A DNA stretch of 56,448 nt from positions 1 to 56,448 of the forward strand of contig CALWKI010000069.1 in NCBI GenBank assembly GCA_944381235.1. The letters run 5' to 3'. This document shows positions 1-25,300 of the stretch, piece after piece. The DNA is from an uncultured Clostridia bacterium. GTDB lineage: Bacteria > Bacillota > Clostridia > Christensenellales > UBA1242. The notes under the pieces are model-generated. The model did not search any database. It was not told the DNA's origin and worked only from the letters and a program-made list of their open reading frames with translations. Both the position numbers and the translations under genes were made by a program. Numbering within the stretch: position 1 is the stretch's first letter; every line of letters begins with the position of its first letter.

Positions 1-327
1 ATAACTATTTTTTTCACCAATCAAAGTAGGAATTGAAGTTGCAAACCATACAAGCAACCAAACAAGCACTAGAGACGCAACTATTGCAACTGCAACACGA
101 ATAAGTGCTCCTTTCGCCTCTTTTGCCTTATCTGCAGTTTCTGCCCTTGCAAGTTTTACACCTAAAATGATAACCCAAATAGCACCTGCAATAGCAACTA
201 CTATAGTAATTGGTATAATTAAATCATCTAAAACTTCAACTATTGACTTAAGCCAACCAAGTTTAGATTCTTTTCCAAATTGCGAATCTATTGCACCCTG
301 GAAAGGGCCTCCAAGAAAATTAAACAT
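1..327 (-). CDS. Small two-helix membrane protein, VirB2/TrbC-like (conjugative pilin-like). Its 3' end lies beyond the window start.
   Basis: Hand translation of the minus strand from ATG (complement 325-327), preceded by GGAGGAAGT (328-336): MFNFLGGPFQGAIDSQFGKESKLGWLKSIVEVLDDLIIPITIVVAIAGAIWVIILGVKLARAETADKAKEAKGALIRVAVAIVASLVLVWLLVWFATSIPTLIGEKNSY. The frame is open to position 1. Two hydrophobic helices are separated by a short K/A/E-rich loop. The gene is divergent from a T4SS coupling protein. The listed + ORF 167..361 is its antisense shadow. Confidence 0.55.
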   Translation of the reverse strand, partial: MFNFLGGPFQGAIDSQFGKESKLGWLKSIVEVLDDLIIPITIVVAIAGAIWVIILGVKLARAETADKAKEAKGALIRVAVAIVASLVLVWLLVWFATSIPTLIGEKNSY

Positions 328-544: not shown

Positions 545-2557
545 ATGAAAAAGTTACTAATTAGAATTTTGCTTTTTATACCTATAATAGGAATTTGCTA
601 CTTACTTGGTCTTGCAATGACCTATTTTTTCACCTATGGAGGAGAAGGTTCTTTTGATATAGGACTTCTTTCTCAAGGAACATTTACTTTGGTTCCGGTA
701 ATCGTTGGTGGAGGAATTTACCTTATATATTTTTTAAACAAATTACTCGATGTGTCAAAACCAGACAAAGCAAAGCCAGGGTCAAAGAATAAAGAAGGTA
801 AAGAAGTTGCACAATATTTTGATTCTAGATGGATAACTGAAAAAGAACTCAAAACTGAAAAAAAGTTTATGTATGCCACATGGAACACGATTAGAAGCAG
901 CAAAGACGGAATACTACTTAGAAGCGAACTGAGAAAGAACAATCTAGAAATTAATATGTACCAGCCAATTCATGCGCTTATTATTGGTACAACTGGTACT
1001 GGAAAGACGCAAAAATATATAATTCCGACCATTCAGATTATGTCTTCCACTAAAACAAAGCCTAGTTTTGTCATTGCCGACCCAAAGGGCGAATTATATG
1101 AAAAAAACAGTCATAAACTAATTGAAGAAGGCTATGAAGTAAAAGTATTTAACCTAAGACAACCATTTTCGTCAGTTAAGTGGAACCCGCTTGACAACGC
1201 ATATGAACTTTATCACAGGGCGCATCACTTGCACGATTTTGTTAAAGTACATTCAGGCGTCAATCCGGCTGATCTTGGGCTCAAGATAATAAGTAGTGAG
1301 TACAACTACGAGTGGTACGAATATGGTGGAGTTGCTTATCCAAACAAACAAATACTTGACGAGGACCTTGAATCTAAAAAAGCAGAATATATTGACCAAG
1401 CAGAAAATGACCTAAGAGAAATAGCAACCATCCTCTGCCCTATTAAAAATGAAAAAGATCCAAGTTGGGAAAGAGGTGCGCAAGAAATGATATTAGGTAC
1501 AATGCTTGCCATGCTTGAAGATAGTTTAGACGAAAGACTAAATATGACGCGGGATAAGTTTAATTTCTACAATTTACGTAAAATTGTGACTTATAAAGAC
1601 ACTGACCCAGACAATCCATACAAGACACTTAGACAATATTATGCAGGTAGAGACAAATTTAGTAAAGTGCCGGGGCTAGTTAGTGGGGCAATTAACAATG
1701 CACCTAGTACAACTAAGAGTTATATGGGTATAGTAACAGGAAGTCTTGGAGTATTTAACGATAATGGTATGTGCTTTGCGACAAGTGAAAATGAAATGAA
1801 TTTTGATTCATTTGGTGACAAACCTACTGCCCTATTTATCATTATTCCAGACGAAAAAGAGTCAAGGTGGGGTATTGCAACTATGATGATTTCACAACTT
1901 TACAAAAAACTTGTAGACCTTGCAAACAACTACCCTAACATGATGTTACCAAGGCCTGTATATTTCCTGCTTGACGAGTTCGCAAATCTTCCAAAGATAG
2001 AAAAAATTGATACAATGATTACGGTAAGTCGTAGTAGAAATGTATTTTTCTCACTTGTTGTTCAGTCTTTTAGCCAATTAAACGCAAAATATGGGGATGA
2101 CGTCGCACAAACCATTAAAGGTAACTGTCCAATAAAAATATTCATTGGTACAGACGATAGAGTGACGTGTGAAGAGTTTAGTAAACTATGTGGAGATATG
2201 ACGCTTGAAATTTCGTCCACCTCTGAAAGTAAACAAAAAGACGAAAAAGGAAAAGAAAATCCAAACAAGACGACAAGTTTATCTACTGCCTCTCGTCCAC
2301 TTATTTATCCAGACGAACTTGGACACTTAGGAGACAGCGGTGGCACGAGTGAAATCATTATTAAAATTCTTAACGAGTTCCCTATGAGAATAAAATCTAC
2401 TGCTTACTGGGCAACCCCTATGTTTGACCATATGAAAGCATCAAGCGGATATGTGCCAAGTAGGTCACTTAATGAGGCAAAAATAAGTTACAATATTTCA
2501 GATAGAAATCAAATTGTTTTAAAACCTAGACCTATGATTGACATGAGTGATTTTTAA
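545..2557 (+). CDS. Type IV secretion coupling protein (VirD4/TraG family T4CP ATPase)
   Basis: 670 aa. Two N-terminal TM helices. Walker A is IIGTTGTGKTQKYIIPTI (nt ~982-1009), followed by the ADPKGELY motif. Walker B is VYFLLDEFANLPKI (nt ~1959-1982). GGAGG lies 4 nt upstream of the ATG. This is the typical VirD4/TraG/TraD architecture. Confidence 0.88.
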   Translation: MKKLLIRILLFIPIIGICYLLGLAMTYFFTYGGEGSFDIGLLSQGTFTLVPVIVGGGIYLIYFLNKLLDVSKPDKAKPGSKNKEGKEVAQYFDSRWITEKELKTEKKFMYATWNTIRSSKDGILLRSELRKNNLEINMYQPIHALIIGTTGTGKTQKYIIPTIQIMSSTKTKPSFVIADPKGELYEKNSHKLIEEGYEVKVFNLRQPFSSVKWNPLDNAYELYHRAHHLHDFVKVHSGVNPADLGLKIISSEYNYEWYEYGGVAYPNKQILDEDLESKKAEYIDQAENDLREIATILCPIKNEKDPSWERGAQEMILGTMLAMLEDSLDERLNMTRDKFNFYNLRKIVTYKDTDPDNPYKTLRQYYAGRDKFSKVPGLVSGAINNAPSTTKSYMGIVTGSLGVFNDNGMCFATSENEMNFDSFGDKPTALFIIIPDEKESRWGIATMMISQLYKKLVDLANNYPNMMLPRPVYFLLDEFANLPKIEKIDTMITVSRSRNVFFSLVVQSFSQLNAKYGDDVAQTIKGNCPIKIFIGTDDRVTCEEFSKLCGDMTLEISSTSESKQKDEKGKENPNKTTSLSTASRPLIYPDELGHLGDSGGTSEIIIKILNEFPMRIKSTAYWATPMFDHMKASSGYVPSRSLNEAKISYNISDRNQIVLKPRPMIDMSDF

Positions 2558-2582
2558 TTTTAAATTTAAAGAGATTATATAA

Positions 2583-2613
2583 AGAGAGTACAAAAAAGTA
2601 TTCTCTTTTTTTT
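2583..2613 (+). terminator. Rho-independent terminator after the T4CP gene
   Basis: Stem agagagtac (2583-2591) pairs with gtattctct (2598-2606), with one G-U pair. Loop is aaaaaa. A T7 run follows (2607-2613). Confidence 0.7.
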
Positions 2614-2761
2614 GTATCAAAAATAAAAAACATTATCTATTTTATTTTGAAAAAAAATTTCAATATGTTAATATGTAAATATTAATATTATTATTAAATA
2701 TATTATTATGTTTTGTGGAATAATAAAATAAAGAAACTAAAGAGTAAAAGAGGTAAAAAGA

Positions 2762-5700
2762 ATGAACAAAACAAGGATAAAAGTTGTTGCTTTTAGTTTA
2801 ATAATGCTAGTTTTTAGTTGCTGTTTTATTTTCTTAAATGAAAGTAAGACTAACCCGCTTGGTGAGAGAAAGGAAGTTATGGCGTCCTATCAAACGGGAG
2901 ACACATATTTTTCTGATACAGAAAACACTTCAAACAGTACCCTTATTGAAAATGGATATATTCCCTTTTCCCTTTTTACTAGCGTTGAATATGCAGGTAA
3001 TGCGGGATATAGCATAACCGACTACTATCCTGAATTTACCACAAGTGTAAGAAACAATACATACTACTACGAAATGACAGAGGATTCTGTCCCATACATT
3101 CTTTTATCCTCAAAATCTGGTACGACGGCAGACGATATTTTAACAACTCTTTATAACTCTACGCTTCACTTTAGGTTTAACGATATAAACGCAAAGACTG
3201 ACCCAGGAATTAACTATGGCAAAATTAGCGAACGTGGTCAAATGCAAATGGCTGTGACTATTAGAAATTCGCCAACTGACGACCCTATTGTCCTTAGTGC
3301 GAGCCCTGACTATGTAATTGCCGAAGAAGACAACATGTATTCATTTGCAGTAAATTTGCAAGAACTTATACTCAATGGTGCGACAAATGAAAACGCGGAG
3401 TGTCCTGAACTAGCGCTAAGTGGTGGAGACGTTGGAATTGGTGAGGAAGATCAACAAGAATACCTAGGCGGTAATGGCACAAACAACGACGTATCTGCAA
3501 GAACTGGTCTTTATACATTTACCATTAGTTATAACTACACCTCATCAATAAGTGGACAATTTGTTTCCAACAACTGTGTATTTGAGATGTCTGTTTATGT
3601 GGTTGACTATAGTACATATATTACAGAAAATCAAAATCCACTAACCTTTGAAAATACAGACGTATATACAGTCGAAAATGAAACTTTTACAAAAGAATAT
3701 CAAATTTATAACTACAACTATGAAAATGCACCAGTTGTAAACTATGACGCATCAAAGTTTGCTCTTAACTTTACCTTTAAAGTTGGTGGAGATGACAATA
3801 CATCTAATGTTTATCATTTTAATTACGATAATTTCGTTGTTGATCACGAGGATGGCCGCACGGGTATTGTAACTTTAAGTTGCGAAGAAAATGGCAACAC
3901 CTATTCTTTTTACACCTATGACGACGGAGACGCGGAAAATGGCACACAATATCTCGCTAAATTTTATTTAGATGATTTTGAAAAAAATTACATAATGGTA
4001 AACCAATCATACTTTAACACCTCCGTTTTTCAAGGTATATACGAATTTGAACTTGACTTACTTACTCAAGGTGACGGCAGTGTACCATACACACACGTTG
4101 ACAAAAATTTATTTAGCGAAGAGATACAAGAGAGTTTGACATACGAGAGACTTATTATCTTTGGCTACGACCTAAGGTATGAGGACAAGGATACCTCTTC
4201 CCCAACCTACAATCAAGTATTACCTTTAGTTAATGACTACACACATACAACTATTGCATCTTATAATGCTATGACAAATGGACTAGATGAAACTGAAGAT
4301 GAAACTGAAGTCGGTAATCTCCTGTCTATCCCAAGCCTTATTGCAACTACGAACATTACACCTCTTAGATTCCATAATTATGGCTCGCTTACAGATTACA
4401 CGGCGACTTACAGAAGATTTGACTCTTTCCAAATAAGTGACGAAGAAATTTTAAACACTATAAACGGCATGACACTTGCTGAAATTGATGATTACATTGC
4501 AAAAGACGATTCAACTTACTCTCAAGAATTTCAAAACATTACTGTTGCTGGCATTTATCTTATGAAACTAGAATACTCTATTGATGTCCCAGTACCACTC
4601 GTAGGAGACGACAATACCCCAATCAAGAATATTACAGGCTGCCAGTATGTCTTATTTAAAATTGAGTCCGGTTTACAATCTCTTTATATCCAAGGGATAG
4701 AGGGTGACACGGCATACGACTTTGTCAGCGCAACAAACAAAGATGTAAGGGTCGGAATTGAGGTAAGAAATAACCTTTTCTCTAATCCAATAAGTGTAAG
4801 TTACACATATGCACAAGATTATCAAAATACGTCCATGTCAGGGACGCTATCTCTAAAAAGAGGTGAAGATGGTGAACTTGAAACCTTTACAATTAATAAT
4901 AAAGAGTATTACTATTATGTTATAAATGGAGCACTTGACTATATATTTACAAAAAATGGTAGATATACTGTTACTATACGCAGCACTGGAAGCACAGCAA
5001 AAAGTTACGGCTTTAGTATTGATAAAGAAGATATTTCTGACATTCAAGTAAATAGCGTAGTACAATCTAGTCTTGGAAATTATGTAAAGAGTAATGAAAT
5101 TACAAGTTCAAATATCTATGGGTTTGATTATATTGATAAAAATCTTTATGTGACAGACTCCGCGTTTACAGTAGGCTGGGCTCCAAAGAGGAGTGGAGTT
5201 AAAGAGTATGTTTCTATTTACGTTATGGATCTAAAAAGAGGAGATAGCGCGACATCTTCTTCCCTATTTAAGCAAACAAATGGTGACTACTGGCTTACAA
5301 ACAATTATTACTTTGACGCTTTGAAAACTGGAGACAGTTCTAATTATCTTAATAGTTACAATTTAACAACCCTTGAGGCAAATAGTTATTTCTTTAGACC
5401 GGGACTTTACTATTTCTTTATCTACGACGACGCAGGAAATTATTCTGGAATTACAGTACTTGTTGACGACACCTTACCTCAAATTGCACAAGGTAGTTGG
5501 AGTGGAGTGCCGGAAGAGTCTACTTGGGAAAATTCCTATTCCCCAACAACAAATCCAAATAATTTTGTAAACTCAGATACTGTCCTTTATTTTGGAACAC
5601 ATAAGGCACTTAGTTTACCACTTCAGAAAAGTTCCACAGGGGAAAACTTCTTTGAAAACGAAATAACTTTACAAATAACAGATAGAAGTTACACTAACGC

Positions 5701-8700
5701 GTATGACCTGACAAATAATGGCGCACCTGTCACAAAAGAAAACATTAATATAAATTTTTACAAAGATGTTTTACTTGCTTTAACAAATTATATCAAAGAA
5801 ACAGATGGCGGGGACTTATTTAATCTTTCTTGGGCTGAAGAAGAAGATAGGTTAACATATTACCTTCTTCTTGAAAACACTTTAGTCAATTACTCATACT
5901 TCCCAGTTGATGTTAGTCTTACTCCAAGTTCAGGTACTTATAGCCCAGCACCTGTAAGTGTTGCGCTATACTTAAATAATTCTAATGCGACATTTAATGG
6001 CGAGGCAGATTATGTATTTTCTTTACTTAACCAAAATGGACTTCAAATAGATAGAGAAGTTCATATGAGTTTAGATAATGTAAGAAGTTCGTTTTATGCG
6101 TATAACTCTCCTGAAGATAGATTTTATATAAGAAAAAATGCTGGGACAAATCTTAATTCATTAATTTTTGAATATACAATTTTAAACAATGATTTGTCTG
6201 AATATTACGAAATTGAAAGTCTCTACTATAGTTACTATCCTTTTGCACTAGACGAGAGTGACGCTAATTATTCCCTGTCTTCCTATCCATTCTCATCTGT
6301 CGCAGTTGAAGAGGACACTCCTCTTACCGCCACCTCTCTTGACGGCATTACTTACACAACAAGCACAATAAATCCCGACTATTCGTCAAGTGAATATGGG
6401 ATAACAGAACCTGGAATGTATGTGGTAACTCGAGTTTATAGAGGTGGTCCATATAACTTAGTCAATGGTGAGTATGTTGAAACAGACACAGGCTATGGCG
6501 GAACTCATTACCTAGGCGATGACGGCAACTACTATCCTCTCTTCTCTCTTGATCCAATGACAAAAAGTTATACTGTTTATGTAGACCATAATGGAATAAT
6601 TAGTTCTACTTACTTAAGTGACGGCATAACGCGCGAAGTCGGAGATAATATTAGTATTTCTTTAAATGACGACACAAATTACTCATATACATTTAAAGAG
6701 TTCCTCACAATGACAGGAAATCGCGCACTTGTTACAAATGAAGTACCTATCAAAATAAATATTCCTTTCAGCAAGTACTTTAAGTATGCAGAAAATGGAA
6801 CACTAAATTACGTTTATAGCGCACTTAGTTTTTCAAAACTTAACGTCGAAATTGTTTACACTAATACATCTGGCGTTCAATATACCTACACAATAGACGG
6901 CTATGATAGTAGTACTGGAATGTGCACTAGTTCTATGCTCGTTAGCACATCTAATCCAAACGGACACTTAATATTCCAAGAACAAGGAAGTTACACTATT
7001 AGAATTACGGATAACACGGGATACACGTTATCAAGTACATCCTCTACTAATCTTAATGTAAATCCAACTAGTCTAGAGTTTAGCTTTGAGATTAGCCATA
7101 CTTCCCCATCTGCTACTGCATATTCATATATTTACAATTCAATTACAGATAGGTTTGAACAAAATATACAAAATGACGAGTACGGTACACATATTTATGC
7201 AGTTAACGCAACAAACGAGGTAATAAATGGTGAACGCAATAGATTTTACTTAGTGTGGCAAGATGATAGAACACCTTATATGTCAAAAGTAAATAATTTA
7301 AATATCAACTACATTATAAATAGTCAAGCAAGCAATTTTAACATAGATTTTAGTAGATATGACCTAAATGAAATAGCAGAACAAAATTTGGCAATTTTAT
7401 TAAGTGACGCAAATTCTAGTTTAACAGTTCTCGCAGAAAACTCAGTTAATTTAGACTCTTTCCTATTTTACCTTACAGTAGACTACTACGACGCAAACAA
7501 TCCTTATGAGGTTTATGATGGTGAAAACTATTATAGATATGTGTACACTTTGAATTTTGGGCTTGGTGCGGAATGTGTTTATGAAGTAACACTAAGTTAT
7601 GACAATACTAGTTCGTTTGCGTTTAAGAGTACAACTTATGACGTATCTATTGATAGAACAAAGCCAAATACAAATCTTGACAACTTAATTAATAGCGAAG
7701 ACTTTTTAAGGACATATTATTCTAGTTCAATAGAAAGTTTTAAAGAAGAAAAATTTGATATCAATAATTTATACACACTTCCTTCCGTCCTAACCTACAC
7801 ATTCGGAGTTAATACAGACTATGTGTTAAATTACAATGAAGAAGAGACAGTCCCTTACTTTTATGTAAGGTCTTACAACAAATATAACGGAGAATACGCT
7901 AGCATTACTCCAGACCTTGCAAATACTGAATACTATCAAAACGAAGATATTTTTGGTAGATATCCAAAATTCACTGAAACATCTCTTACAAATAATATTG
8001 TAAATATTGGGGATAATGTGTGGTATCTTGTTGAATATTCAAACGACTCCTTGTACTCATTAATTGCAAATACTTTGGGCGTAGTACCAAGCGGTTACTA
8101 CGAAATTATAGAGAGAGACTACGCAGGAAATTATAGGACTTTTACAATTTATTTTGCCTCGCAAGACTCGTCAAGTTATGATATCCTTAGACTTGATGGA
8201 CGAGACGAAATTAGAGAAACTTTTGAAAGTTCGACAGGTGACAACCTTACTGCAGAGGCTTTCTTTACACTAACTCAGTTATCTTCAAGATTAGGCTGGG
8301 GTGTTGTAAAGCTAAGAAATGAAACCTTAAATCTAGACTTTGATACACGTATTTATTTGACACCTGAAAGTAATCTTAATTCAACTCTTCTTGAAAGAAT
8401 TAACACTTTCTTAAGCGGTGGCGGAGATGAAATAAATATTAATTGTAGATATAGTTTCACTTTATCAAAATACAACTCTTCCTTCCCACCAGTTGTCAAG
8501 TCTGTAAGCGTTATTACAAACGAAGACAATGCAAGGCTTAGCGCTCCTACTATCACAGAAGTTCCAAACATTGAAACTGGCTTGTCAACATATACTTTAA
8601 CCCTCCCTGCTTATTCAACAACTTCTGTTTTATACTTAACGAGTTTTGATTTATATGCATTTTCCAATTCAACTGGGGCTTGGGAACTAACTCAATATTC

Positions 8701-11338
8701 TTATGACGACAGGGACGAGATAAGATTAAATAACCCAATACGAGGTTTAAGCGCGGGTGTTTATAGAGCCGTTTATATGGACAACTATAATACTAGTTCG
8801 TACGAATACATATTGTATGTAGGTGAATATCGGTTAGAAAATTTTGAAGACCAATACAATTTTAGTTATAACTATGTAATTGATAATAGTACTACAACTT
8901 ACTACACAGGAGGAGATGTCACTGTCACATATGAAGGTAATATCTATTCAGTTTATGTAAATGGTATTTTGTATTCGGGCACCTCTCACGAGTATCAACC
9001 AGAAAGTTTGCAACAAAACAATTTAAAACGCTTTGACCTAACAAGTGATTTTACCTACGACAATATTCCTGCAAATCAAAGTGTTGGAGGTACGACCGAA
9101 TACATTATAGAGTATAGAGATATAACAAATGGTCAAACGCAAAAAGTAATGCGAATAACTATTTTTGATATGCTACCAGAAATACTACTTACAAACAATG
9201 ATGATGAAAACGATGAAATATCTTCAACTCTTGAAGAAAGCGATTCACAAATTACAAATTCTAGCGTTAGAATTAACTATGGATACATAACTGGTTGTGA
9301 GTACGAAGCACTTAACGATTCAGACACTAACGAAGTCACAACTGCAACTCTTTACACGAGAGACGCAAACGGGCTTTATAGAAACGGAATTACAATACCT
9401 CGAGGAAATAGTTCTGATAGAAACCTTGTAAGTGAAGAAGGATACTACAGACTTGATATTACAAATAGAATACTTGGAAACACAAGATCGGTTTATTTTG
9501 TAATTAGGCTTGGAGACTTCCCTTTATACACAGTAAGTGATGGAGACACAACTCTTTCCCCTTCCCCATATGAAACACTTAATATTACTTTAAATAGTGC
9601 TGGTAATCTTGTGCAAGACACAAACGGCAATCAAAATAGCATTCTTTACACAATATATAATGCTTTGACCTCACTTCGTGACAATGGAAGTTTTGATAGC
9701 AATACTGATAGAAATGAAAGAGAGTACAATATGCTTGTTGAAGCAATGGGCTTTAGAAACGGAATATATTCTCAAACAAACATTGGGATTGCAAACGTGT
9801 TAAATCTTAGCCATTTCTATACCGTAAATAATGCTAGCATTACCTATAATAGTAATATTAACCTTGACATAATTGAGTTTACTTTTGAAAATAGCATTTT
9901 ACAAAATTTCTTTATACACGGAGATGGAGGATCAAACCCAACTCCTACAGGAGACGATGTAGACTACTGGACAACAATTTATCTTGTTTACTCACTCAGT
10001 GGACCAATTAGAATTGAATTTTTTGCAGTTACAAAAGTACCTAGATCAACCAATCTCATTGGAAACACAATTTATTACAATGAAACTGAATCAATACTTA
10101 TTCGTGAAAATGAGCGAGAACGAGACCTAACAAATTCAAATGGGATTGTGAATAATGAGTTGTCTCTTCAATGGAACAGTTTAAATCCTTCTCAAACAAC
10201 ATATTGGTACAATCAAGGTAATTTCATCTATGTAATGGAGAGATATGGAGTTGATGAAGATTATGTCGCGCTTGATTATACATATAACTCGACAAACGGA
10301 AGAAATTCATCAATCTTGCAGGGTGCTGGAACACATAGACTTATGTTTAGAGACATTGCGGGAAATACGCATAGTTTTTCAACTAGTTCAATGGCAATCG
10401 ACCCAAATGTTTATACAATTAATATAATTACTGAGGTCATCTACTACATTAACTATAATAATGAGGATCTAAACCCTATTCAATACGGAATATTTAATGA
10501 TAGTTTAAGTTTGGTAATTGATAGCACTTATCTTGAGAAAATATCAAGGTACAACGTTAGTGTAGTTAGAAATGGAACGCCTTATAACGCTTATACTAGA
10601 GAAGACAATGTTTACACCTTCACCTCTCCTGGCAGATATGTTGTAACTCTAACAGGTTCGTATGGAGGAAACGATTTAAATACTGCAACATACAATTTCA
10701 CTTTAGTGTCAACAAATTCTGCACGTCTTGCATTTGAATTTACACAAGTTCTAGATTACAAAATTATTCAAGTAATTAGAAATAATGAGGACATTACAGA
10801 TAACTTTGCTGTAAATGGAGAGATCTCTTCCCTATTTATATCATCTAGCGATTCAAGAAGTGGAAATGGTTACTATACTGTAACATTAAAATACGGAGAA
10901 AGAGACGACGAAATACTTGAATTTTCCTTCTTTATTAACGACTATGAACCAACTTTGTCTAGTAACGTTGCGTATGGAGAAACAACAACTTCAGAAATTG
11001 TAATATCATACAACCCTGCTTACATTTACGGACAACTTGGTGTTTGCTATATTAATGTTTTGATTTACAATGAAGACAGCGGGACTTTCTATCAATATGG
11101 TAGATTTACAATTAACGAGACCTCAACCGACAGCCTCTCTTCCTTTAGTTTGACACAATCTAATTCGTATTTCATACAAGTTGAAACTGAAAGCGGAAAC
11201 ATTGTATCTAGTTTTAGAGTAAATAAAACCGACCCACTAAATACCTTTGCTATAATCATTATTGTTATCGCAGTAGTTGCAACTATTGTACTCGTAATTG
11301 TTGTTATAAAACTTAGGACGAGAATGCGCGTCAGATAA
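2762..11338 (+). CDS. Giant (2,858 aa) surface protein with an N-terminal signal/anchor helix, a C-terminal TM anchor and many divergent beta-sandwich-like modules
   Basis: The ORF is 8,577 nt and uninterrupted in an AT-rich genome. An AGAGGT RBS is present. The N-terminus is MNKTRIKVVAFSLIMLVFSCCFIF. The C-terminus is FAIIIIVIAVVATIVLVIVVIKLRTRMRVR, a TM helix plus a basic stop-transfer segment. There is no LPXTG. Composition is Y/N/T/S-rich. Recurring module endings of the type G-Y-x-hydrophobic-T ... D-x-(A)GN ... hydrophobic-D-x-T-x-P, e.g. YFFIYDDAGNYSGITVLVDDTLPQI, YEIIERDYAGNYRTFTIYF, HRLMFRDIAGNTHSFSTSSMAIDPNV, YDVSIDRTKPNT, ITIFDMLPEI, FFINDYEPTL. Confidence 0.85.
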   Translation: MNKTRIKVVAFSLIMLVFSCCFIFLNESKTNPLGERKEVMASYQTGDTYFSDTENTSNSTLIENGYIPFSLFTSVEYAGNAGYSITDYYPEFTTSVRNNTYYYEMTEDSVPYILLSSKSGTTADDILTTLYNSTLHFRFNDINAKTDPGINYGKISERGQMQMAVTIRNSPTDDPIVLSASPDYVIAEEDNMYSFAVNLQELILNGATNENAECPELALSGGDVGIGEEDQQEYLGGNGTNNDVSARTGLYTFTISYNYTSSISGQFVSNNCVFEMSVYVVDYSTYITENQNPLTFENTDVYTVENETFTKEYQIYNYNYENAPVVNYDASKFALNFTFKVGGDDNTSNVYHFNYDNFVVDHEDGRTGIVTLSCEENGNTYSFYTYDDGDAENGTQYLAKFYLDDFEKNYIMVNQSYFNTSVFQGIYEFELDLLTQGDGSVPYTHVDKNLFSEEIQESLTYERLIIFGYDLRYEDKDTSSPTYNQVLPLVNDYTHTTIASYNAMTNGLDETEDETEVGNLLSIPSLIATTNITPLRFHNYGSLTDYTATYRRFDSFQISDEEILNTINGMTLAEIDDYIAKDDSTYSQEFQNITVAGIYLMKLEYSIDVPVPLVGDDNTPIKNITGCQYVLFKIESGLQSLYIQGIEGDTAYDFVSATNKDVRVGIEVRNNLFSNPISVSYTYAQDYQNTSMSGTLSLKRGEDGELETFTINNKEYYYYVINGALDYIFTKNGRYTVTIRSTGSTAKSYGFSIDKEDISDIQVNSVVQSSLGNYVKSNEITSSNIYGFDYIDKNLYVTDSAFTVGWAPKRSGVKEYVSIYVMDLKRGDSATSSSLFKQTNGDYWLTNNYYFDALKTGDSSNYLNSYNLTTLEANSYFFRPGLYYFFIYDDAGNYSGITVLVDDTLPQIAQGSWSGVPEESTWENSYSPTTNPNNFVNSDTVLYFGTHKALSLPLQKSSTGENFFENEITLQITDRSYTNAYDLTNNGAPVTKENININFYKDVLLALTNYIKETDGGDLFNLSWAEEEDRLTYYLLLENTLVNYSYFPVDVSLTPSSGTYSPAPVSVALYLNNSNATFNGEADYVFSLLNQNGLQIDREVHMSLDNVRSSFYAYNSPEDRFYIRKNAGTNLNSLIFEYTILNNDLSEYYEIESLYYSYYPFALDESDANYSLSSYPFSSVAVEEDTPLTATSLDGITYTTSTINPDYSSSEYGITEPGMYVVTRVYRGGPYNLVNGEYVETDTGYGGTHYLGDDGNYYPLFSLDPMTKSYTVYVDHNGIISSTYLSDGITREVGDNISISLNDDTNYSYTFKEFLTMTGNRALVTNEVPIKINIPFSKYFKYAENGTLNYVYSALSFSKLNVEIVYTNTSGVQYTYTIDGYDSSTGMCTSSMLVSTSNPNGHLIFQEQGSYTIRITDNTGYTLSSTSSTNLNVNPTSLEFSFEISHTSPSATAYSYIYNSITDRFEQNIQNDEYGTHIYAVNATNEVINGERNRFYLVWQDDRTPYMSKVNNLNINYIINSQASNFNIDFSRYDLNEIAEQNLAILLSDANSSLTVLAENSVNLDSFLFYLTVDYYDANNPYEVYDGENYYRYVYTLNFGLGAECVYEVTLSYDNTSSFAFKSTTYDVSIDRTKPNTNLDNLINSEDFLRTYYSSSIESFKEEKFDINNLYTLPSVLTYTFGVNTDYVLNYNEEETVPYFYVRSYNKYNGEYASITPDLANTEYYQNEDIFGRYPKFTETSLTNNIVNIGDNVWYLVEYSNDSLYSLIANTLGVVPSGYYEIIERDYAGNYRTFTIYFASQDSSSYDILRLDGRDEIRETFESSTGDNLTAEAFFTLTQLSSRLGWGVVKLRNETLNLDFDTRIYLTPESNLNSTLLERINTFLSGGGDEININCRYSFTLSKYNSSFPPVVKSVSVITNEDNARLSAPTITEVPNIETGLSTYTLTLPAYSTTSVLYLTSFDLYAFSNSTGAWELTQYSYDDRDEIRLNNPIRGLSAGVYRAVYMDNYNTSSYEYILYVGEYRLENFEDQYNFSYNYVIDNSTTTYYTGGDVTVTYEGNIYSVYVNGILYSGTSHEYQPESLQQNNLKRFDLTSDFTYDNIPANQSVGGTTEYIIEYRDITNGQTQKVMRITIFDMLPEILLTNNDDENDEISSTLEESDSQITNSSVRINYGYITGCEYEALNDSDTNEVTTATLYTRDANGLYRNGITIPRGNSSDRNLVSEEGYYRLDITNRILGNTRSVYFVIRLGDFPLYTVSDGDTTLSPSPYETLNITLNSAGNLVQDTNGNQNSILYTIYNALTSLRDNGSFDSNTDRNEREYNMLVEAMGFRNGIYSQTNIGIANVLNLSHFYTVNNASITYNSNINLDIIEFTFENSILQNFFIHGDGGSNPTPTGDDVDYWTTIYLVYSLSGPIRIEFFAVTKVPRSTNLIGNTIYYNETESILIRENERERDLTNSNGIVNNELSLQWNSLNPSQTTYWYNQGNFIYVMERYGVDEDYVALDYTYNSTNGRNSSILQGAGTHRLMFRDIAGNTHSFSTSSMAIDPNVYTINIITEVIYYINYNNEDLNPIQYGIFNDSLSLVIDSTYLEKISRYNVSVVRNGTPYNAYTREDNVYTFTSPGRYVVTLTGSYGGNDLNTATYNFTLVSTNSARLAFEFTQVLDYKIIQVIRNNEDITDNFAVNGEISSLFISSSDSRSGNGYYTVTLKYGERDDEILEFSFFINDYEPTLSSNVAYGETTTSEIVISYNPAYIYGQLGVCYINVLIYNEDSGTFYQYGRFTINETSTDSLSSFSLTQSNSYFIQVETESGNIVSSFRVNKTDPLNTFAIIIIVIAVVATIVLVIVVIKLRTRMRVR

Positions 11339-11467: not shown

Positions 11468-12619
11468 CTAATTTTTATAATCAACAAACATACAATTATA
11501 ATTTTCAAGTTCACTTTTAAGTGTATTTAAACTTTCTGACATTCCATTGTCCTTAAGTAGTGCTACAACCGTAACGCTTGCCCCATTACTATATGTGCCC
11601 GCATATCTCATAAGACGGGAAACCAAGAACAGTGAATACGACTTAATGTCGCCTATGTTACCATTATTTAAAAAGTTTTGATACTTCACCATTTTCATAA
11701 GTTCGTTGACAAATATAACTACTTTTTTACCTTGCTCAATAAGTCTTGAAAGTCTTGAAAAACAAATTTCACAAGTGAGTGCATTCATTTTTGCCGTATC
11801 ATCAAGTAATGTATAAAAACTTTCACTAAAATTAAGATTATACTCAGGCAATGCGTCAATGCACAAATTCACAAAGTGATATTTGTCCACACATCTTTCT
11901 CTTATCTCCTGAAGTATGTCCATATATTTATTAAAAGAAGAAACACTTAAAACTATTCTCTTTCCTTCTTCTACGTCTCCAACTATTTCACTAAAATATA
12001 TATATTTATCGCTTCTTTGAACACTAATCTCGGCTATATCTTGTGTTTTAGTAAAATCTGATAAATTCTTAATCTTAGTTGCAATTCTTGCGTTATAATT
12101 AATACTATTTTTATATACACATTTTATATAGTCTGAATCTTTTAGATTGTTTTGATATACTAGTTCAGCAGGCACAATAATAGCATTTTCTATCTTTGCG
12201 ACCCTTCCATTTTGAAAAAGGTAAAAATTTTCTCCTATTTGCTTTAAATACCCCTCACCATCTCTAAAATCAAACTTTTCATCGTACTTAAATGGTGCAC
12301 TTTGATATGAATCATTCAGTTCTGCATAATTTTCTTCTTGTGGTGAAGAAAAGTCGTAATCACGCAAATTATTTGAATCTATCACGTCGCTATATTTTGT
12401 CGGTCCTTGATATAAATATGGGTTTCTTGCCTTTGGAGGCCTGCCTTGGCGATTTTTTGGTACTTCTGGTTGTTTTTCACCACTTAGAATTTGGAGGATT
12501 TTTTCAATGAGTTCATCCTTCTTACAAGTGGTAGGAGATAAAACCCCCAAGTCTCTTGCGAGGTTCCTCAAATCAAAGATTCCCATATTCCTCATTGTTA
12601 TTTCGTCAATTTTCTTCAT
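11468..12619 (-). CDS. Rho-like protein with a Rho N-terminal helix bundle, an OB-fold-like segment and a degenerate, truncated RecA-type domain (apparently ATPase-dead)
   Basis: 383 aa. [44 protein letters not shown] aligns with Rho_N. [18 protein letters not shown]...[21 protein letters not shown] aligns with E. coli GDGVLEILQDGFGFLR...[35 protein letters not shown] aligns with GQRGLIVAPPKAGKT, so GKT is lost. [10 protein letters not shown] aligns with [29 protein letters not shown] aligns with [29 protein letters not shown] aligns with GSLTIIATAL. The protein ends about 80 aa short of a full Rho. Confidence 0.6.
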   Translation of the reverse strand: [383 protein letters not shown]

Positions 12620-19826: not shown

Positions 19827-21257
19827 TTATTCTTGTTTTACGCCAATATATCTACTAATAATACTTCCTTCAGTTTCATCAACGAAAGACACCTGCTCAT
19901 CAATCATAAGCATATGAAGATAATTTAGAGTGTCACCATCTTCTTGCGAGTAAACAAAGATCCTTTCATTGTCAAAATCAAACATTTCAGTACTATTAAC
20001 CTCATAACTAAATTCGGTTGCAATAACGACTGGTTCTGAATAATCTGACACAGTATACCTATTCCCCTCAATACTAAAATTCAAAGTACACTTATAGAGA
20101 GCAGTATCATCCGCAACTTGATAGTAGAATTCATTTCCTTGGGTAGCAAGTAATGTAACTTCTTTTGTCGTATCAGACAAGACACCAATTTCACGAACAA
20201 TACCATTATTATAATATGTTATAGAATAATTAGTACCATCATAGAAAACGCCAAGGATACCTCTATCAAGATTTGCGCTGCCAATGCTAGCATCTAGTAT
20301 AAGGTAGTCTGTTATTGAATTTGCAGAACTAGAAATTGAAATCTCTGCATAAACGCTAGGAATATAAGTTGAAAGGTTATCTTGCCCAAAAGATTTAAGT
20401 ACTCCGTCTTCAGTAAAATAAATTCTATTGTTCTTAACGCTCTCAACTAATAATTCTGAACTAGACCTAAAAATTACGCTTTCATCTCCACCACTAAGCA
20501 AACGTCTACACAAATAATAAGTACTTGTATCACTATCTTGTCTAGTATAGTAGACATATTTATTTATTTCTTGAACGCTTTCCCCTGCAACAATATTATT
20601 TTGCTCAAAAACCGCAAATGATGTAGCCCCGTCAACATTGATTACTTCACGTTTATTTCCACCGTCTATTGCCATAACAATTAGTTTATTGTCTGCATCG
20701 CGCGATGCAATATACACTATATTATCAACGCTTACAAGATCATAACTTGCCTCTGCGCTATAATTTGAAATACTGTATATCTCCTCATGCTCAGTACCAT
20801 TAAGTCTTACCCTATCAATTCTAACTAGTCCATAAGTTAGTTCACCAGTGTTAGTCGCAACAGTATAAGGAGTTGCATAGTACAGATAGTCGCCAAAAAT
20901 ATAAAGTCCAGCGTACGCAAAACCACCAACGTTATAAGTAACAAGTTCAACTCCCTCTCGTTTCCCCTCGTCGTTTAAGTCAACTCCACCAAACTGATTA
21001 AGTTTTGTCCTATAAATGCCATATATCTTTTGTGCACTACCATCGTCGTATTTATTATCATTATTTGAGATAGAGTTATAATCAACAAACGCGTTAGCAA
21101 AATACAGATAATCGCCCTTAACAACTGCCGAACCGCCATTTCCATAAATAGAATCATTGCTTGCTGGTCCACCAGAAAGATTTATAGCGTTACATGCAAA
21201 GAGTAACACCGAAAAAACAAGTAAAAATGATAATAAAAAAATTGATTTCTTTTTCAA
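19827..21257 (-). CDS. Lipoprotein, DUF5050-like beta-propeller
   Basis: 476 aa. TTG start. Lipobox within MKKKSIFLLSFLLVFSVLLFAC. Repeated GNGGSAVVKGDYLYFAN and GDYLYYAT motifs resemble DUF5050/TolB-like blades. Confidence 0.6.
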   Translation of the reverse strand: MKKKSIFLLSFLLVFSVLLFACNAINLSGGPASNDSIYGNGGSAVVKGDYLYFANAFVDYNSISNNDNKYDDGSAQKIYGIYRTKLNQFGGVDLNDEGKREGVELVTYNVGGFAYAGLYIFGDYLYYATPYTVATNTGELTYGLVRIDRVRLNGTEHEEIYSISNYSAEASYDLVSVDNIVYIASRDADNKLIVMAIDGGNKREVINVDGATSFAVFEQNNIVAGESVQEINKYVYYTRQDSDTSTYYLCRRLLSGGDESVIFRSSSELLVESVKNNRIYFTEDGVLKSFGQDNLSTYIPSVYAEISISSSANSITDYLILDASIGSANLDRGILGVFYDGTNYSITYYNNGIVREIGVLSDTTKEVTLLATQGNEFYYQVADDTALYKCTLNFSIEGNRYTVSDYSEPVVIATEFSYEVNSTEMFDFDNERIFVYSQEDGDTLNYLHMLMIDEQVSFVDETEGSIISRYIGVKQE

Positions 21258-21513: not shown

Positions 21514-22437
21514 TCAAATTAAATCAACTTTGAGCGTCTCTCCACTAACGGCATCTTGACAAACAATAAAATACCCTTCTCCATTGGCATTATTAACATC
21601 CTTTGGAAGCCAACCTGCGTATTCTTTTATGTCTTCCGGTGGATTGTTTCCACCTATTGACGGGACGCCATAGCAAATATATAAAACATCTCCATTTTCC
21701 TTGTATATAAGTCCCAAAATATAATAATTACCATCGTTGTCATAAACAATTTTCGCCCATTTAGAACTAGGTATTATTTCTTCTAAAACTTTGTATTCTT
21801 CATATTTGTTAAAGAGCGCGTCAATTTGAGGTTTTATTTGTTCATAAAAGGTTTTACTATCATTATCATCATCCACTTTTGCGTCCGCCTCATTACTTGA
21901 CGATGCAACCTTTGCGTCATTTTCTTTAAGACACCCGCCCTCATTATAAAAAGCCTCTCGATATTTACACTTTGCACACGCATCAAAATATGTTGTTGAT
22001 AAGTCTTGCTCTAAATTTTTATCAATTAAATCTTCTATTTTTTCTTGACTATCTTCTTCGTATAATACAGATGTGTCCTCAGGTTTTTCTGGCATAAAAG
22101 CACCTTCAATTTTGCTATTTTCTGTACTTGAATTTTCACTTCCACTTAGAACAATTTCTGGACAAAAAGGATTTGAAATGTCTACAACTGCACAACTTAG
22201 ACCCTTATTAAAATTAAGTACACTTGACAGTGAAAACGTACAATTATCTCCTTTTATAATTAGTGGCACCTTCATAACTTTTGATTCCTGTTTTATTCCA
22301 AGAGCGAATGTATGCGACGCGTCTTTTAAATTAAAAAATTTGATTTGACTTTTATCTATATTTTTTAAATTAAGTATTGCCTTAAAATTTTTGTCCTTAT
22401 CACTATTTAAAATCAAAGTTTTTGCAGATTCACTCAC
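21514..22437 (-). CDS. Hypothetical protein (307 aa)
   Basis: Long ORF with a GTG start and an AAAGGAGT RBS. Central CAKCKYREAFYNEGGC motif and an acidic linker. No family recognised. Confidence 0.65.
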   Translation of the reverse strand: MSESAKTLILNSDKDKNFKAILNLKNIDKSQIKFFNLKDASHTFALGIKQESKVMKVPLIIKGDNCTFSLSSVLNFNKGLSCAVVDISNPFCPEIVLSGSENSSTENSKIEGAFMPEKPEDTSVLYEEDSQEKIEDLIDKNLEQDLSTTYFDACAKCKYREAFYNEGGCLKENDAKVASSSNEADAKVDDDNDSKTFYEQIKPQIDALFNKYEEYKVLEEIIPSSKWAKIVYDNDGNYYILGLIYKENGDVLYICYGVPSIGGNNPPEDIKEYAGWLPKDVNNANGEGYFIVCQDAVSGETLKVDLI

Positions 22438-24221: not shown

Positions 24222-24797
24222 ATGAATAAAATTTGGTTCTGGTGCATCGTCACAAGTATTTGTATTCTTCTTTATATCAATCCTGAGATCGTCCTACCTT
24301 CTATGCTTGACGCAAGCGAAAGTACGCTAAAATTATGTCTTAGTTTGTGCGCAATTTATTCCGTTTGGATGGGAATTTTGCAAGTAATGGAGGATAGCGG
24401 AATAAATAAAAAACTATCAAAATTTTTAACACCTGTTACAAAGAAAATTTTTGGAAATTTAGATGAAGCAACAAACGAACTCATTTGTATGAATATTTCA
24501 TGCAACATTCTTGGTATGGGAGGGGCGGCAACGCCACTTGGAATGAAAGCGATGCAAAGACTTGACGACGGTAGTGGAAATGCAAATAGAGCCATGATAA
24601 TGTTAATTATTTTTGCATCTACCTCAATGCAAATTTTACCTACAACAGTCATTGGTCTTAGGATTACAGCTGGTAGTACAAGCCCTAGTGACATTATTCT
24701 ACCTACCATAATTGCCGCAATTTTTACAACTGTTGTAGGGATTTCAATAGCCATAATTATAGAACGATTTAGAGAAAGGAAAAGAAAGAAAAAATGA
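24222..24797 (+). CDS. spmA: Spore maturation protein A (nucleoside-recognition-domain membrane protein)
   Basis: 191 aa polytopic membrane protein. MNKIWFWCIV...SVWMGILQVMEDSGI is SpmA-like. Its end overlaps the downstream spmB start by 4 nt. Confidence 0.8.
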   Translation: MNKIWFWCIVTSICILLYINPEIVLPSMLDASESTLKLCLSLCAIYSVWMGILQVMEDSGINKKLSKFLTPVTKKIFGNLDEATNELICMNISCNILGMGGAATPLGMKAMQRLDDGSGNANRAMIMLIIFASTSMQILPTTVIGLRITAGSTSPSDIILPTIIAAIFTTVVGISIAIIIERFRERKRKKK

Positions 24798-25300
24798 GCA
24801 TATATTTACTGCCTGTACTAATACTATTTGTTTTTGTTTATGCGAAAATAAAAAAAGTCAATGTTTATAACAGTTTTATAAACGGCGCAAAGCAAAGCCT
24901 AGGCGTCGTTGTTAGCATCTTCCCTTTTCTTGTAACAATTATGATAATGGTCCAATTTATTAAAATAAGTGGACTAGCCTCCCTCGTGGCAAATTTAATT
25001 TCCCCAGTCTTTAACCTTATGGGCATTCCAAGTGAATTATGCGAACTCGTACTCCTAAAACCTTTTAGCGGAAACGGAAGTCTTGCTATTCTAAACGATA
25101 TCTTTACAACCTATGGAGTAGATAGTTACATAGGAAGGTGTGCAAGTGTAATTGTTGGAAGTTGCGACACAGTTTTTTACGTAACAACCTTGTATTGCTC
25201 TCAAATAAAGGTAAAACGTCTATTCTATGCCGTACCTGTGGCATTACTTGCCACCCTTCTTGGAACAGTGCTTAGTTGTCTACTCTGTAGATTCATGTAA
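24794..25300 (+). CDS. spmB: Spore maturation protein B
   Basis: 168 aa membrane protein translationally coupled to spmA. LLKPFSGNGSLAIL is an SpmB-type motif. Confidence 0.8.
   Translation: MSIYLLPVLILFVFVYAKIKKVNVYNSFINGAKQSLGVVVSIFPFLVTIMIMVQFIKISGLASLVANLISPVFNLMGIPSELCELVLLKPFSGNGSLAILNDIFTTYGVDSYIGRCASVIVGSCDTVFYVTTLYCSQIKVKRLFYAVPVALLATLLGTVLSCLLCRFM

Follow-up and report, generated by a model that had tools for sequence, protein, structure and literature searches.

What could be the role of a surface protein of 2,858 residues that matches no described family and is encoded directly downstream of a gene for a type IV coupling protein (T4CP)? The question is raised by the largest gene in a stretch of 56,448 nucleotides from an uncultured Clostridia bacterium (order Christensenellales; assembly GCA_944381235.1, contig CALWKI010000069.1, positions 1 to 56,448; hereafter the window), whose open reading frame (ORF; 2762..11338, plus strand) is intact over 2,858 codons, the next largest in the window encoding 1,217 amino acids (aa). 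A first-pass annotation of the DNA had already singled out this ORF as the largest and had presented its product (hereafter the giant) as a protein anchored at both ends, built of diverged beta-sandwich-like modules and displayed, perhaps as an adhesin, by a C-terminal anchor. The T4CP gene figured there as a side check to be made on homologues; it is in fact the main clue. We come to the reading that the giant is the extracellular adhesin or contact fibre of a chromosomally fixed, non-mobile type IV secretion system (T4SS) of a monoderm bacterium, and consider this reading to be evenly poised between right and wrong.

The gene is real and conserved, and its product comes from a large unannotated family. 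A word-indexed search recovered 23 homologues that are collinear with the window protein over its whole length (2,756-2,967 aa, 32-99% identity) and, additionally, two distant giants, and a profile search yielded ten further giants of 2,555-3,626 aa. An exhaustive HMMER search of 1.84 billion representatives with a C-terminal profile of 421 positions returned 537 representative proteins at E<=0.001, 374 of which score at E<=1e-30; among the 150 matches listed, nearly all measure 2,400-3,100 aa and match at their very C-terminus; those that are shorter are probably contig-end fragments. Even between lineages with no more than 30% identity the length of the family members hardly varies (about 2,400-3,100 aa). 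The named relatives stem from metagenome-assembled genomes labelled Clostridia, Christensenellales or Christensenellaceae, and among the homologues from the two annotated searches none has a Pfam domain and 'hypothetical protein' is the sole name given at the source. The first-pass annotation had allowed for an assembly chimera; because the same full-length ORF recurs in independent assemblies, with 23 whole-length collinear homologues and further giants besides, this explanation is excluded.

The genes on which the functional argument turns are the following.

1..327, minus strand: 5' part (109 codons) of a gene for a VirB2-like T4SS pilin with two transmembrane (TM) helices, cut by the window edge and divergent from the T4CP gene.
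545..2557, plus strand: gene for a VirD4-type T4CP of 670 aa; a TM domain lies at the N-terminus, and both Walker motifs, A (GTTGTGKT) and B (FLLDEF), are intact.
2762..11338, plus strand: gene for the giant, with an ATG start; 2,858 aa, 324 kDa, pI 4.2, rich in S, N, T and Y.

The upstream product, named a T4CP in the first-pass annotation, is indeed VirD4-like (PF02534, 171.9 bits; PF12696, 120.2 bits; PF10412, 91 bits; NF045973 (conju_CD1115), 291.7 bits at a cutoff of 250); no exact-sequence record of it was found. A T4CP gene lies directly upstream of the giant gene, on the same strand, in 15 of the 16 loci in which this could be assessed (the window and loci L001, L003, L005, L006, L009, L010, L011, L012, L014, L015, L017, L019, L020 and L025), so the question whether homologues always sit beside a T4CP is answered with nearly always. 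The pair is found in three core-genome contexts, namely ypeB-sleB-spoIIR-sipL in most loci, a penicillin-binding protein gene and rsmH of the dcw cluster in L010, and the S10 operon to rplM-rpsI in L012, where no other T4SS gene adjoins it. Starting the search from the T4CP side, we found a T4CP 52% identical to that of the window to be followed by a family member of 2,635 aa (L026/L027). Since the pair has been kept through several chromosomal rearrangements, we consider it highly likely that the giant is functionally coupled to the T4CP and its T4SS, and the coupling is probably physical. A role in sporulation, suggested by the neighbours spoIIR, sipL, ypeB and spo0A, was rejected, as the pair also lies by the dcw cluster and by ribosomal operons elsewhere.

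The adjacency could also be a matter of inherited synteny, the giant then being an envelope or S-layer-like protein that is functionally unlinked to the T4SS. Such a view would gain from the two loci in which the adjacency is broken, from a possible separate promoter and terminator and from the S-layer proteins EA1, SbsB and HPI that are found among the structural matches of the giant (all described below). Inherited synteny alone is insufficient, however, to account for a pair that survives at least three independent chromosomal relocations and a divergence of the T4CP to 42-52% identity, and no SLH or other wall-binding module was found in the giant with Pfam. We therefore hold this explanation to be very improbable.

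The components of the locus differ in how far they have diverged. The orthologous loci have common core-gene flanks, and the identities between orthologues amount to 61-93% for the T4CP, 63-94% for VirB4, 50-67% for YpeB, 44% for KsgA and 33-77% for the giant. Because the T4CP and VirB4 are more conserved than YpeB and KsgA, the two ATPases appear to be under strong purifying selection and to be inherited vertically, whereas the giant and the other exposed T4SS components diverge fast. The giant is not encoded on any plasmid in PLSDB, and among plasmid T4CPs the identity to the T4CP of the window does not exceed 29%. A mobile element was considered and rejected, given the core flanks, the conserved synteny, the lack of a plasmid copy and the absence of an integrase or relaxase from the cluster and from the flanks of loci L004 and L006.

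The window itself holds no more of the secretion machine than the T4CP gene and the pilin fragment, the latter scoring below threshold (PF18895 T4SS_pilin, 19.6 bits; NF045849 (Mbov_0395 pilin-like), 29.7 bits), and its orthologues in L006, L019 and L020 pass the cutoffs (for NF045849, 45-49 bits at a cutoff of 40). In orthologous loci the divergent operon runs on past the position of the window's left edge (L001, L003, L004, L006, L009 and L011), and it comprises, in this order, the pilin gene or genes and the genes for a bitopic protein, a polytopic protein, VirB4, a soluble protein of 737-849 aa and a small protein of 78-87 aa. Related loci have one to four pilin genes in the same position (PF18895; NF045849). 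The bitopic protein counts about 570-690 aa; the polytopic, VirB6-like protein (about 950-1,280 aa) matches NF045848 MMCAP2_0566 with 101.8 bits (cutoff 90) and NF045889 Mbov_0396 with 82.7 bits (cutoff 70); and the VirB4 ATPase reaches 563.4 bits with NF045975 VirB4_plasma, just under the equivalog cutoff of 590 bits. A monoderm (MPF-FATA-like) T4SS set of VirB4, a VirB6-like protein and a pilin is thus present in the orthologous loci, and past the operon housekeeping genes follow (MnmA in L004).

Neither a relaxase nor an integrase was found among the ORFs of the cluster, the flanks checked being those of L004 and L006. Together with the vertical, core-genome inheritance this suggests that the machine has probably been co-opted and that its purpose is other than to transfer a mobile element that encodes it. 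The soluble protein of 737-849 aa (9818-12031 in L004, 15918-18467 in L006) and the small protein of 78-87 aa (12050-12286 in L004, 18486-18749 in L006) have no match in Pfam, NCBIfam or the PDB; they are candidates for a missing wall hydrolase or DNA-processing function. Searched against the PDB, the neighbours p737 and p684, which lack annotation, likewise had no match.

The following parts of the gene bear on how the giant is placed in the envelope.

2762..2884, plus strand: N-terminal segment (residues 1-41), consisting of a basic stretch, a hydrophobic core (residues 8-25), a low-confidence linker and a conserved V-x-A|S site.
2885..11233, plus strand: ectodomain (residues 42-2824), predicted to consist of roughly two dozen non-identical Ig/FN3-like beta-sandwich modules (structure models and Foldseek).
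11234..11242, plus strand: P-L-N (residues 2825-2827), just outside the membrane and invariant in 25 aligned sequences.
11246..11308, plus strand: C-terminal TM helix (residues 2829-2849, FAIIIIVIAVVATIVLVIVVI), Kyte-Doolittle score 3.79, conserved family-wide.
11309..11338, plus strand: cytoplasmic tail KLRTRMRVR (residues 2850-2858) with the stop codon, a putative docking motif.

In a Kyte-Doolittle scan the giant has hydrophobic segments at residues ~4-28 and 2822-2857 and nowhere else, its last residues being KLRTRMRVR, all of which agrees with the first-pass annotation. Its conclusion that the protein is anchored at both ends has become doubtful. All family members have a start rich in Lys and Arg, a hydrophobic core and, 12-20 residues further on, a small-x-A site (V-M-A before S in the window protein; V-Y-A, A-Y-A or V-Q-A in others), and in the AlphaFold2 (AF2) model the chain is disordered up to residue 39 (with a predicted confidence, pLDDT, below 50 for residues 29-39), the first strand beginning at residue 44. 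These features make a cleaved Sec signal peptide the probable identity of the N-terminal segment, with a signal anchor as the alternative; if it is cleaved, the giant would be a type I membrane protein. A lipoprotein was rejected: the window protein has a lipobox-like L-V-F-S-C20, and the Cys is missing from most homologues.

The C-terminal end also turned out to be more than the tail anchor that it had been taken for. Conservation is even along the giant and peaks at the C-terminus (23 orthologues), where P-L-N, the TM helix and the RTRMKVR-like tail form the most conserved part of the family. The invariance of P-L-N extends to the distant members P0024 and P0025, the more distant L026 having P-L-T, and the tail follows the pattern K-L-R-T-R-M-[KR]-[VI]-[KR] in essentially all close members and is recognisable in distant ones, which end in PLNTAAIIL...FRTRMKVK (L012) or PLTTLAIIM...LRKKMKVR (L026). 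The basic residues at both ends agree with the positive-inside rule, and as judged from the sequence the C-terminal helix is the membrane anchor and the nine-residue tail is cytoplasmic. Of the 537 proteins retrieved with the C-terminal profile, nearly all that are full-length are giants with this ending. The strong conservation of so short a tail suggests that it has a specific binding partner. Among all loci compared, the combination of P-L-N, a TM helix and a basic tail is confined to the ORFs of the giant family, and a general sorting signal was rejected because no other protein in these loci has it. The giant was likewise rejected as a sortase substrate, since D-P-L-N-T rather than LPXTG precedes the TM helix, although the helix and the basic tail are there.

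A tail with alternating arginines (R-x-R-x-R-x-R) might alternatively be read by the coupling protein as a signal to drive the export or display of the giant, which would then be an effector or other substrate of the T4SS. The tail RTRMRVR is conserved and the order of the T4CP gene and the giant gene is strict, as this requires, and the positively charged C-terminal signals of VirB/VirD4 substrates resemble RTRMRVR. Protein secretion by a Gram-positive T4SS has a precedent in SspA-1 of S. suis (PMC12857230). Against cargo status speaks that the giant has a Sec-type signal of its own at the N-terminus, and that a basic tail right after a hydrophobic helix of 21 residues is a stop-transfer arrangement, from which the tail is expected to stay in the cytoplasm of the producing cell; moreover, searches of Pfam, NCBIfam and PHROGs revealed neither a toxin nor an enzyme domain in the giant. 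We consider it improbable that the giant is cargo.

What lies between the two ends is not recognised by any profile. The giant is composed for 39% of S, N, T and Y and for just 2% of K, and it matches no family at threshold in Pfam, NCBIfam or PHROGs, even when the Pfam and NCBIfam matches are listed to E<=1, which bears out that it does not belong to a known adhesin family. Choline-binding, SLH and LysM repeats and catalytic domains were not found at threshold in these three collections, nor were PAD / antigen I/II, Cna-B or other adhesin or wall-binding domains in Pfam and NCBIfam, and LPXTG is absent by regular expression, the sole loose match being an internal SPTTN at residue 927; the absences listed in the first-pass annotation hold throughout. 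The best sub-threshold Pfam matches both cover residues 2600-2644 (PKD_4, 11.1 bits at a cutoff of 27; BiPBP_C, 12.3 bits at a cutoff of 26.8), and for HYR, PKD and DUF5011 (Bact_surface_Ig-like), of which the first-pass annotation had brought up HYR and DUF5011, no Pfam gathering score is reached. A PDB sequence profile search with the full-length alignment returned only a spurious match to ribosomal protein L32 (E=0.0085), and an Rfam scan of the window had zero matches.

Structure prediction supports the proposal of diverged beta-sandwich modules. Two tiles of 1,200 residues were modelled with AF2 using the family alignment, residues 29-1228 (pLDDT 83.2, predicted template-modelling score (pTM) 0.55, strands making up 44%) and 1625-2824 (pLDDT 85.6, pTM 0.48), and both are almost wholly beta with few short helices; a short helical insert lies near residues 2294-2328. 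The strand count of the modelled tiles suggests roughly two dozen domains for the whole ectodomain. With Foldseek the only PDB matches are large tandem beta-sandwich (Ig/FN3/MG) arrays, with probabilities up to 1.00. For the N-terminal tile these are contactin, the MG domains of alpha-2-macroglobulin and complement, streptococcal ScpC-type proteases, protocadherins and the HPI S-layer protein; for the C-terminal tile the best match is the neck of Aureispira GhpA (9flp, 5.5e-19), accompanied by MDGA1, the S-layer proteins EA1 and SbsB and a mastigoneme protein. Because the TM-scores are ~0.1 and the identities 8-12%, the resemblance is one of fold class only, low global TM-scores being as expected for multi-domain chains; a comparison with viral structures gave generic Ig/FN3 matches only. 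From these models and the two terminal hydrophobic segments the giant is almost certainly a surface chain of Ig-like modules.

The modules are highly diverged from one another, yet each is conserved between orthologues. The shared signature that the first-pass annotation had seen in at least a dozen segments stands in a short form, G-x-[YFH]-x-h-x-h, which has 13 copies in the giant against 3.9 +/- 1.9 in shuffled sequences (maximum 11 in 1,000 shuffles) and whose G and Y are mostly invariant across 23 orthologues; the full form with D-x-AGN is restricted to residues 889, 1786 and 2531, with looser forms at 2633 and 2703. Hidden Markov models built from tiles of 110 residues give weak or marginal cross-matches between modules, and no repeats exist at the DNA level (TRF and a direct-repeat search), as had been stated before; the modules are therefore unique and do not form a repeat array.

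Put together, these properties suggest the following course of events. The giant would be exported by Sec via its N-terminal signal and, according to the predicted topology, be held in the membrane by its C-terminal helix, from which the Arg/Lys tail of nine residues would extend into the cytoplasm. Its acidic ectodomain of ~2,780 residues, with roughly two dozen unique Ig-like modules, would reach through and past the cell wall. As the conserved gene order suggests, it would act with the upstream VirD4-like ATPase, the VirB2-like pilin or pilins, the VirB6-like protein and VirB4, its most likely role being that of an adhesin or fibre for mating-pair formation, by which contact with a partner cell is made or sensed. 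The conserved TM helix and the RTRMKVR tail may dock, or signal, to the coupling protein.

Several observations weigh against the giant as a contact fibre. No binding, lectin or other functional site was recognised in it, so that adhesion, already suspected in the first-pass annotation, is inferred from architecture and context only. Its fixed length and unique, orthologous modules are unlike the repetitive, length-variable stalks of adhesins and favour a structural, machine-like role, and the pTM values of 0.48-0.55 suggest some defined packing between domains in the models rather than a simple rod. The absence of a relaxase was established for just two sets of sequenced flanks, L004 and L006, and the protein of 737-849 aa could be an unrecognised DNA-processing enzyme. 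In one locus (L007, family member P0025) the giant is preceded by an HtrA-like protease instead of a T4CP, and in another (L028/L029) a T4CP 54% identical to that of the window precedes glnS without a giant. Finally, two features separate the T4CP gene from the giant gene.

2581..2608, plus strand: terminator-like hairpin after the T4CP gene (11 pairs, then a T run), which is a match to the consensus only.
2647..2674, plus strand: promoter-like site before the giant gene, TTGAAA, 16 nucleotides and TG-TAATAT; a consensus match only.

The two genes may accordingly be transcribed separately. As to the two exceptional loci, the order is pilin, T4CP, glnS ... HtrA in L028/L029 (9464-13663) and HtrA, giant in L007 (8680-17920), which suggests that a rearrangement split the pair in that lineage.

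The fixed length and the unique modules also lead to the main rival of the adhesin reading, in which the role is structural and either VirB10-like or tied to a pilus. On this view the giant would be an envelope-spanning subunit, that is a VirB10-like connector or the base or sheath of a pilus, which links the coupling ATPase to the exterior and relays signals, or which forms or supports a conduit together with the VirB2-like pilins. A fixed length of ~2,400-3,100 aa and collinear, unique modules over hundreds of lineages resemble a machine part; the TM helix and the cytoplasmic tail are the most conserved segment of the giant; of all T4SS components the T4CP is the one most tightly linked to the giant, also in L012, where the remaining T4SS genes lie elsewhere; and a pTM of ~0.5 hints at a defined packing of domains. 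Gram-positive T4SSs moreover have no VirB10 homologue, and some component not yet pinpointed probably substitutes for it (PMC12857230). On the other hand, the giant has no likeness in sequence or fold to VirB10 or to any known T4SS subunit, an ectodomain of ~320 kDa far exceeds the size required for crossing a Gram-positive wall, and the ectodomain evolves fast (33-63% identity, compared with 68-87% for the T4CP), which fits an exposed surface that recognises partners. A structural role is a possibility that we take seriously but consider rather unlikely, a role as cargo and mere synteny being less likely still.

The remainder of the window is made up largely of core and sporulation genes. Past the giant it encodes YpeB, SleB, SpoIIR, SipL, Spo0A, KsgA, TatD, HolB, PFK, DnaE, WhiA and MurB. 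The immediate downstream neighbour is convergent to the giant gene and encodes a protein of 383 aa (11468-12619, minus strand) that matches Rho_N only, its orthologues matching Rho_N and Rho_RNA_bind with no match to an ATPase domain. This Rho_N neighbour is also found beside the giant in L001, L003, L009, L013 and L024, and apparently in L014-L017, despite differences in the farther flanks, and may be a third conserved member of the neighbourhood of the giant and the T4CP. Two ORFs of 476 and 307 aa between spo0A and ksgA (19827-21257 and 21514-22437, minus strand) have no Pfam match, the former being 30-36% identical to counterparts in L003 and L009. At 24222-25300 (plus strand), within a region of core genes that otherwise lies on the minus strand, there are two adjacent genes for small 'Gate' (nucleoside-recognition) membrane proteins, the first of which ends in a TM helix and a basic tail, ERFRERKRKKK, that is unrelated to the tail of the giant. 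In L027 (16150-17794) another giant gene, whose product of 5,934 aa has Flg_new repeats, is convergent to the family member.

The interest of the family lies in what it may tell about the exterior of T4SSs in monoderm bacteria. Gram-positive T4SSs lack VirB10, VirB2 and VirB5, and how they cross the wall, contact a partner and relay signals is an acknowledged open question (PMC12857230). The 537 representative proteins, tied by gene order to a coupling ATPase, provide a handle on this exterior; the family merits a profile model of its own, its genes of 8-9 kb now being annotated 'hypothetical'. If the link holds, the giant is a candidate, open to testing, for the part of a monoderm T4SS that lies outside the cell, and the locus a second case, outside Patescibacteria, of a T4SS turned into a core cellular organelle. 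A bolder proposal, which we regard as speculative and unlikely, is that the T4CP and the giant form the core of a monoderm T4SS of a kind not described before, in which a tail-docked VirD4-like ATPase, a wall-spanning Ig-like fibre of 320 kDa and a contact-dependent conduit with VirB2-like pilins serve a non-conjugative purpose. If this were true, the conduit would exchange DNA, nutrients or signals between cells, or attack neighbours; it would parallel the essential, relaxase-less T4SS of Patescibacteria and supply the 'missing' VirB10-like transducer of Gram-positive systems; and T4SSs of this kind would be fixed in the chromosomes of uncultured Clostridia from the gut and the environment, which form a large radiation.

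How does the locus compare with known systems? A literature search on T4SSs in Christensenellales retrieved nothing relevant, and the comparison is therefore with other groups. Surface proteins associated with a T4SS are of an already known kind, and in Gram-positive T4SSs the place of pili is generally taken by surface adhesins (PMC12857230). One that is close in general design is PrgB, the aggregation substance of pCF10. It is likewise large, exposed on the surface and encoded together with a monoderm T4SS; an N-terminal signal is present, as is a C-terminal hydrophobic segment followed by a basic tail, and the role proposed is to bring donor and partner cells together in place of a conjugative pilus (PMC12857230). 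Unlike PrgB, the giant has no LPXTG/sortase motif, no polymer-adhesin domain and no Pfam domain at all, and its length is about double; its gene lies on the chromosome and is passed on vertically instead of being borne by a plasmid or an integrative and conjugative element (ICE), it is tied specifically to the T4CP, and VirB2-like pilin genes are present as well. Two proteins are comparable in size or build alone. The staphylococcal Ebh is a giant surface protein that is C-terminally anchored by a TM segment. The Aureispira 'grappling hook' protein GhpA shares with the giant a very long beta-sandwich chain on the cell surface, but this likeness is generic, without homology in sequence, the modules of the giant are no repeats, and the association with a T4CP is specific to the giant family.

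The Mycoplasma ICE (MICE) offers a parallel at the level of the gene set, its module consisting of CDS5 (VirD4), CDS15, CDS16, CDS17 (VirB4) and the surface lipoprotein CDS14, the last of which is required to initiate mating (PMC6030558). The pilin-like, polytopic and VirB4 neighbours of the giant match the NCBIfam models based on MICE (Mbov_0395, MMCAP2_0566 / Mbov_0396 and VirB4_plasma, respectively), VirB4 with a score just below its cutoff and the pilin of the window likewise below it. The host of the giant, however, belongs to the walled, spore-forming Clostridia, no DDE recombinase was seen and the locus is chromosomally fixed, and the giant itself is a TM-anchored Ig-like chain of 324 kDa and not a lipoprotein, its Cys20 not being conserved.

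Patescibacteria, finally, have a relaxase-less chromosomal T4SS with arrays of PF18895 pilins that is essential for epibiotic growth (PMC12102498; PMC12857230). With the system of the Saccharibacteria the present one has in common that it is MPF-FATA-like and chromosomal near core genes, that PF18895 pilins are sometimes arrayed, that no relaxase is nearby and that a non-conjugative role is suspected. The host differs: Spo0A, SpoIIR, YpeB/SleB and SipL are encoded next to the locus, and by these sporulation genes the host is a Firmicute and no Patescibacterium. The T4CP gene of Patescibacteria mostly lies at a distance from virB4, and an adhesin was not detected there (PMC12102498); in the present loci the T4CP gene forms a tight pair with that of a giant surface protein. 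In comparison with both the MICE and the patescibacterial systems the locus is thus a related but distinct arrangement in a different host. New about it are the protein family, its tight pairing with a T4CP, its PLN-TM-RTRMKVR signature and its location, on the chromosome of spore-forming Clostridia and apparently in the absence of a relaxase.

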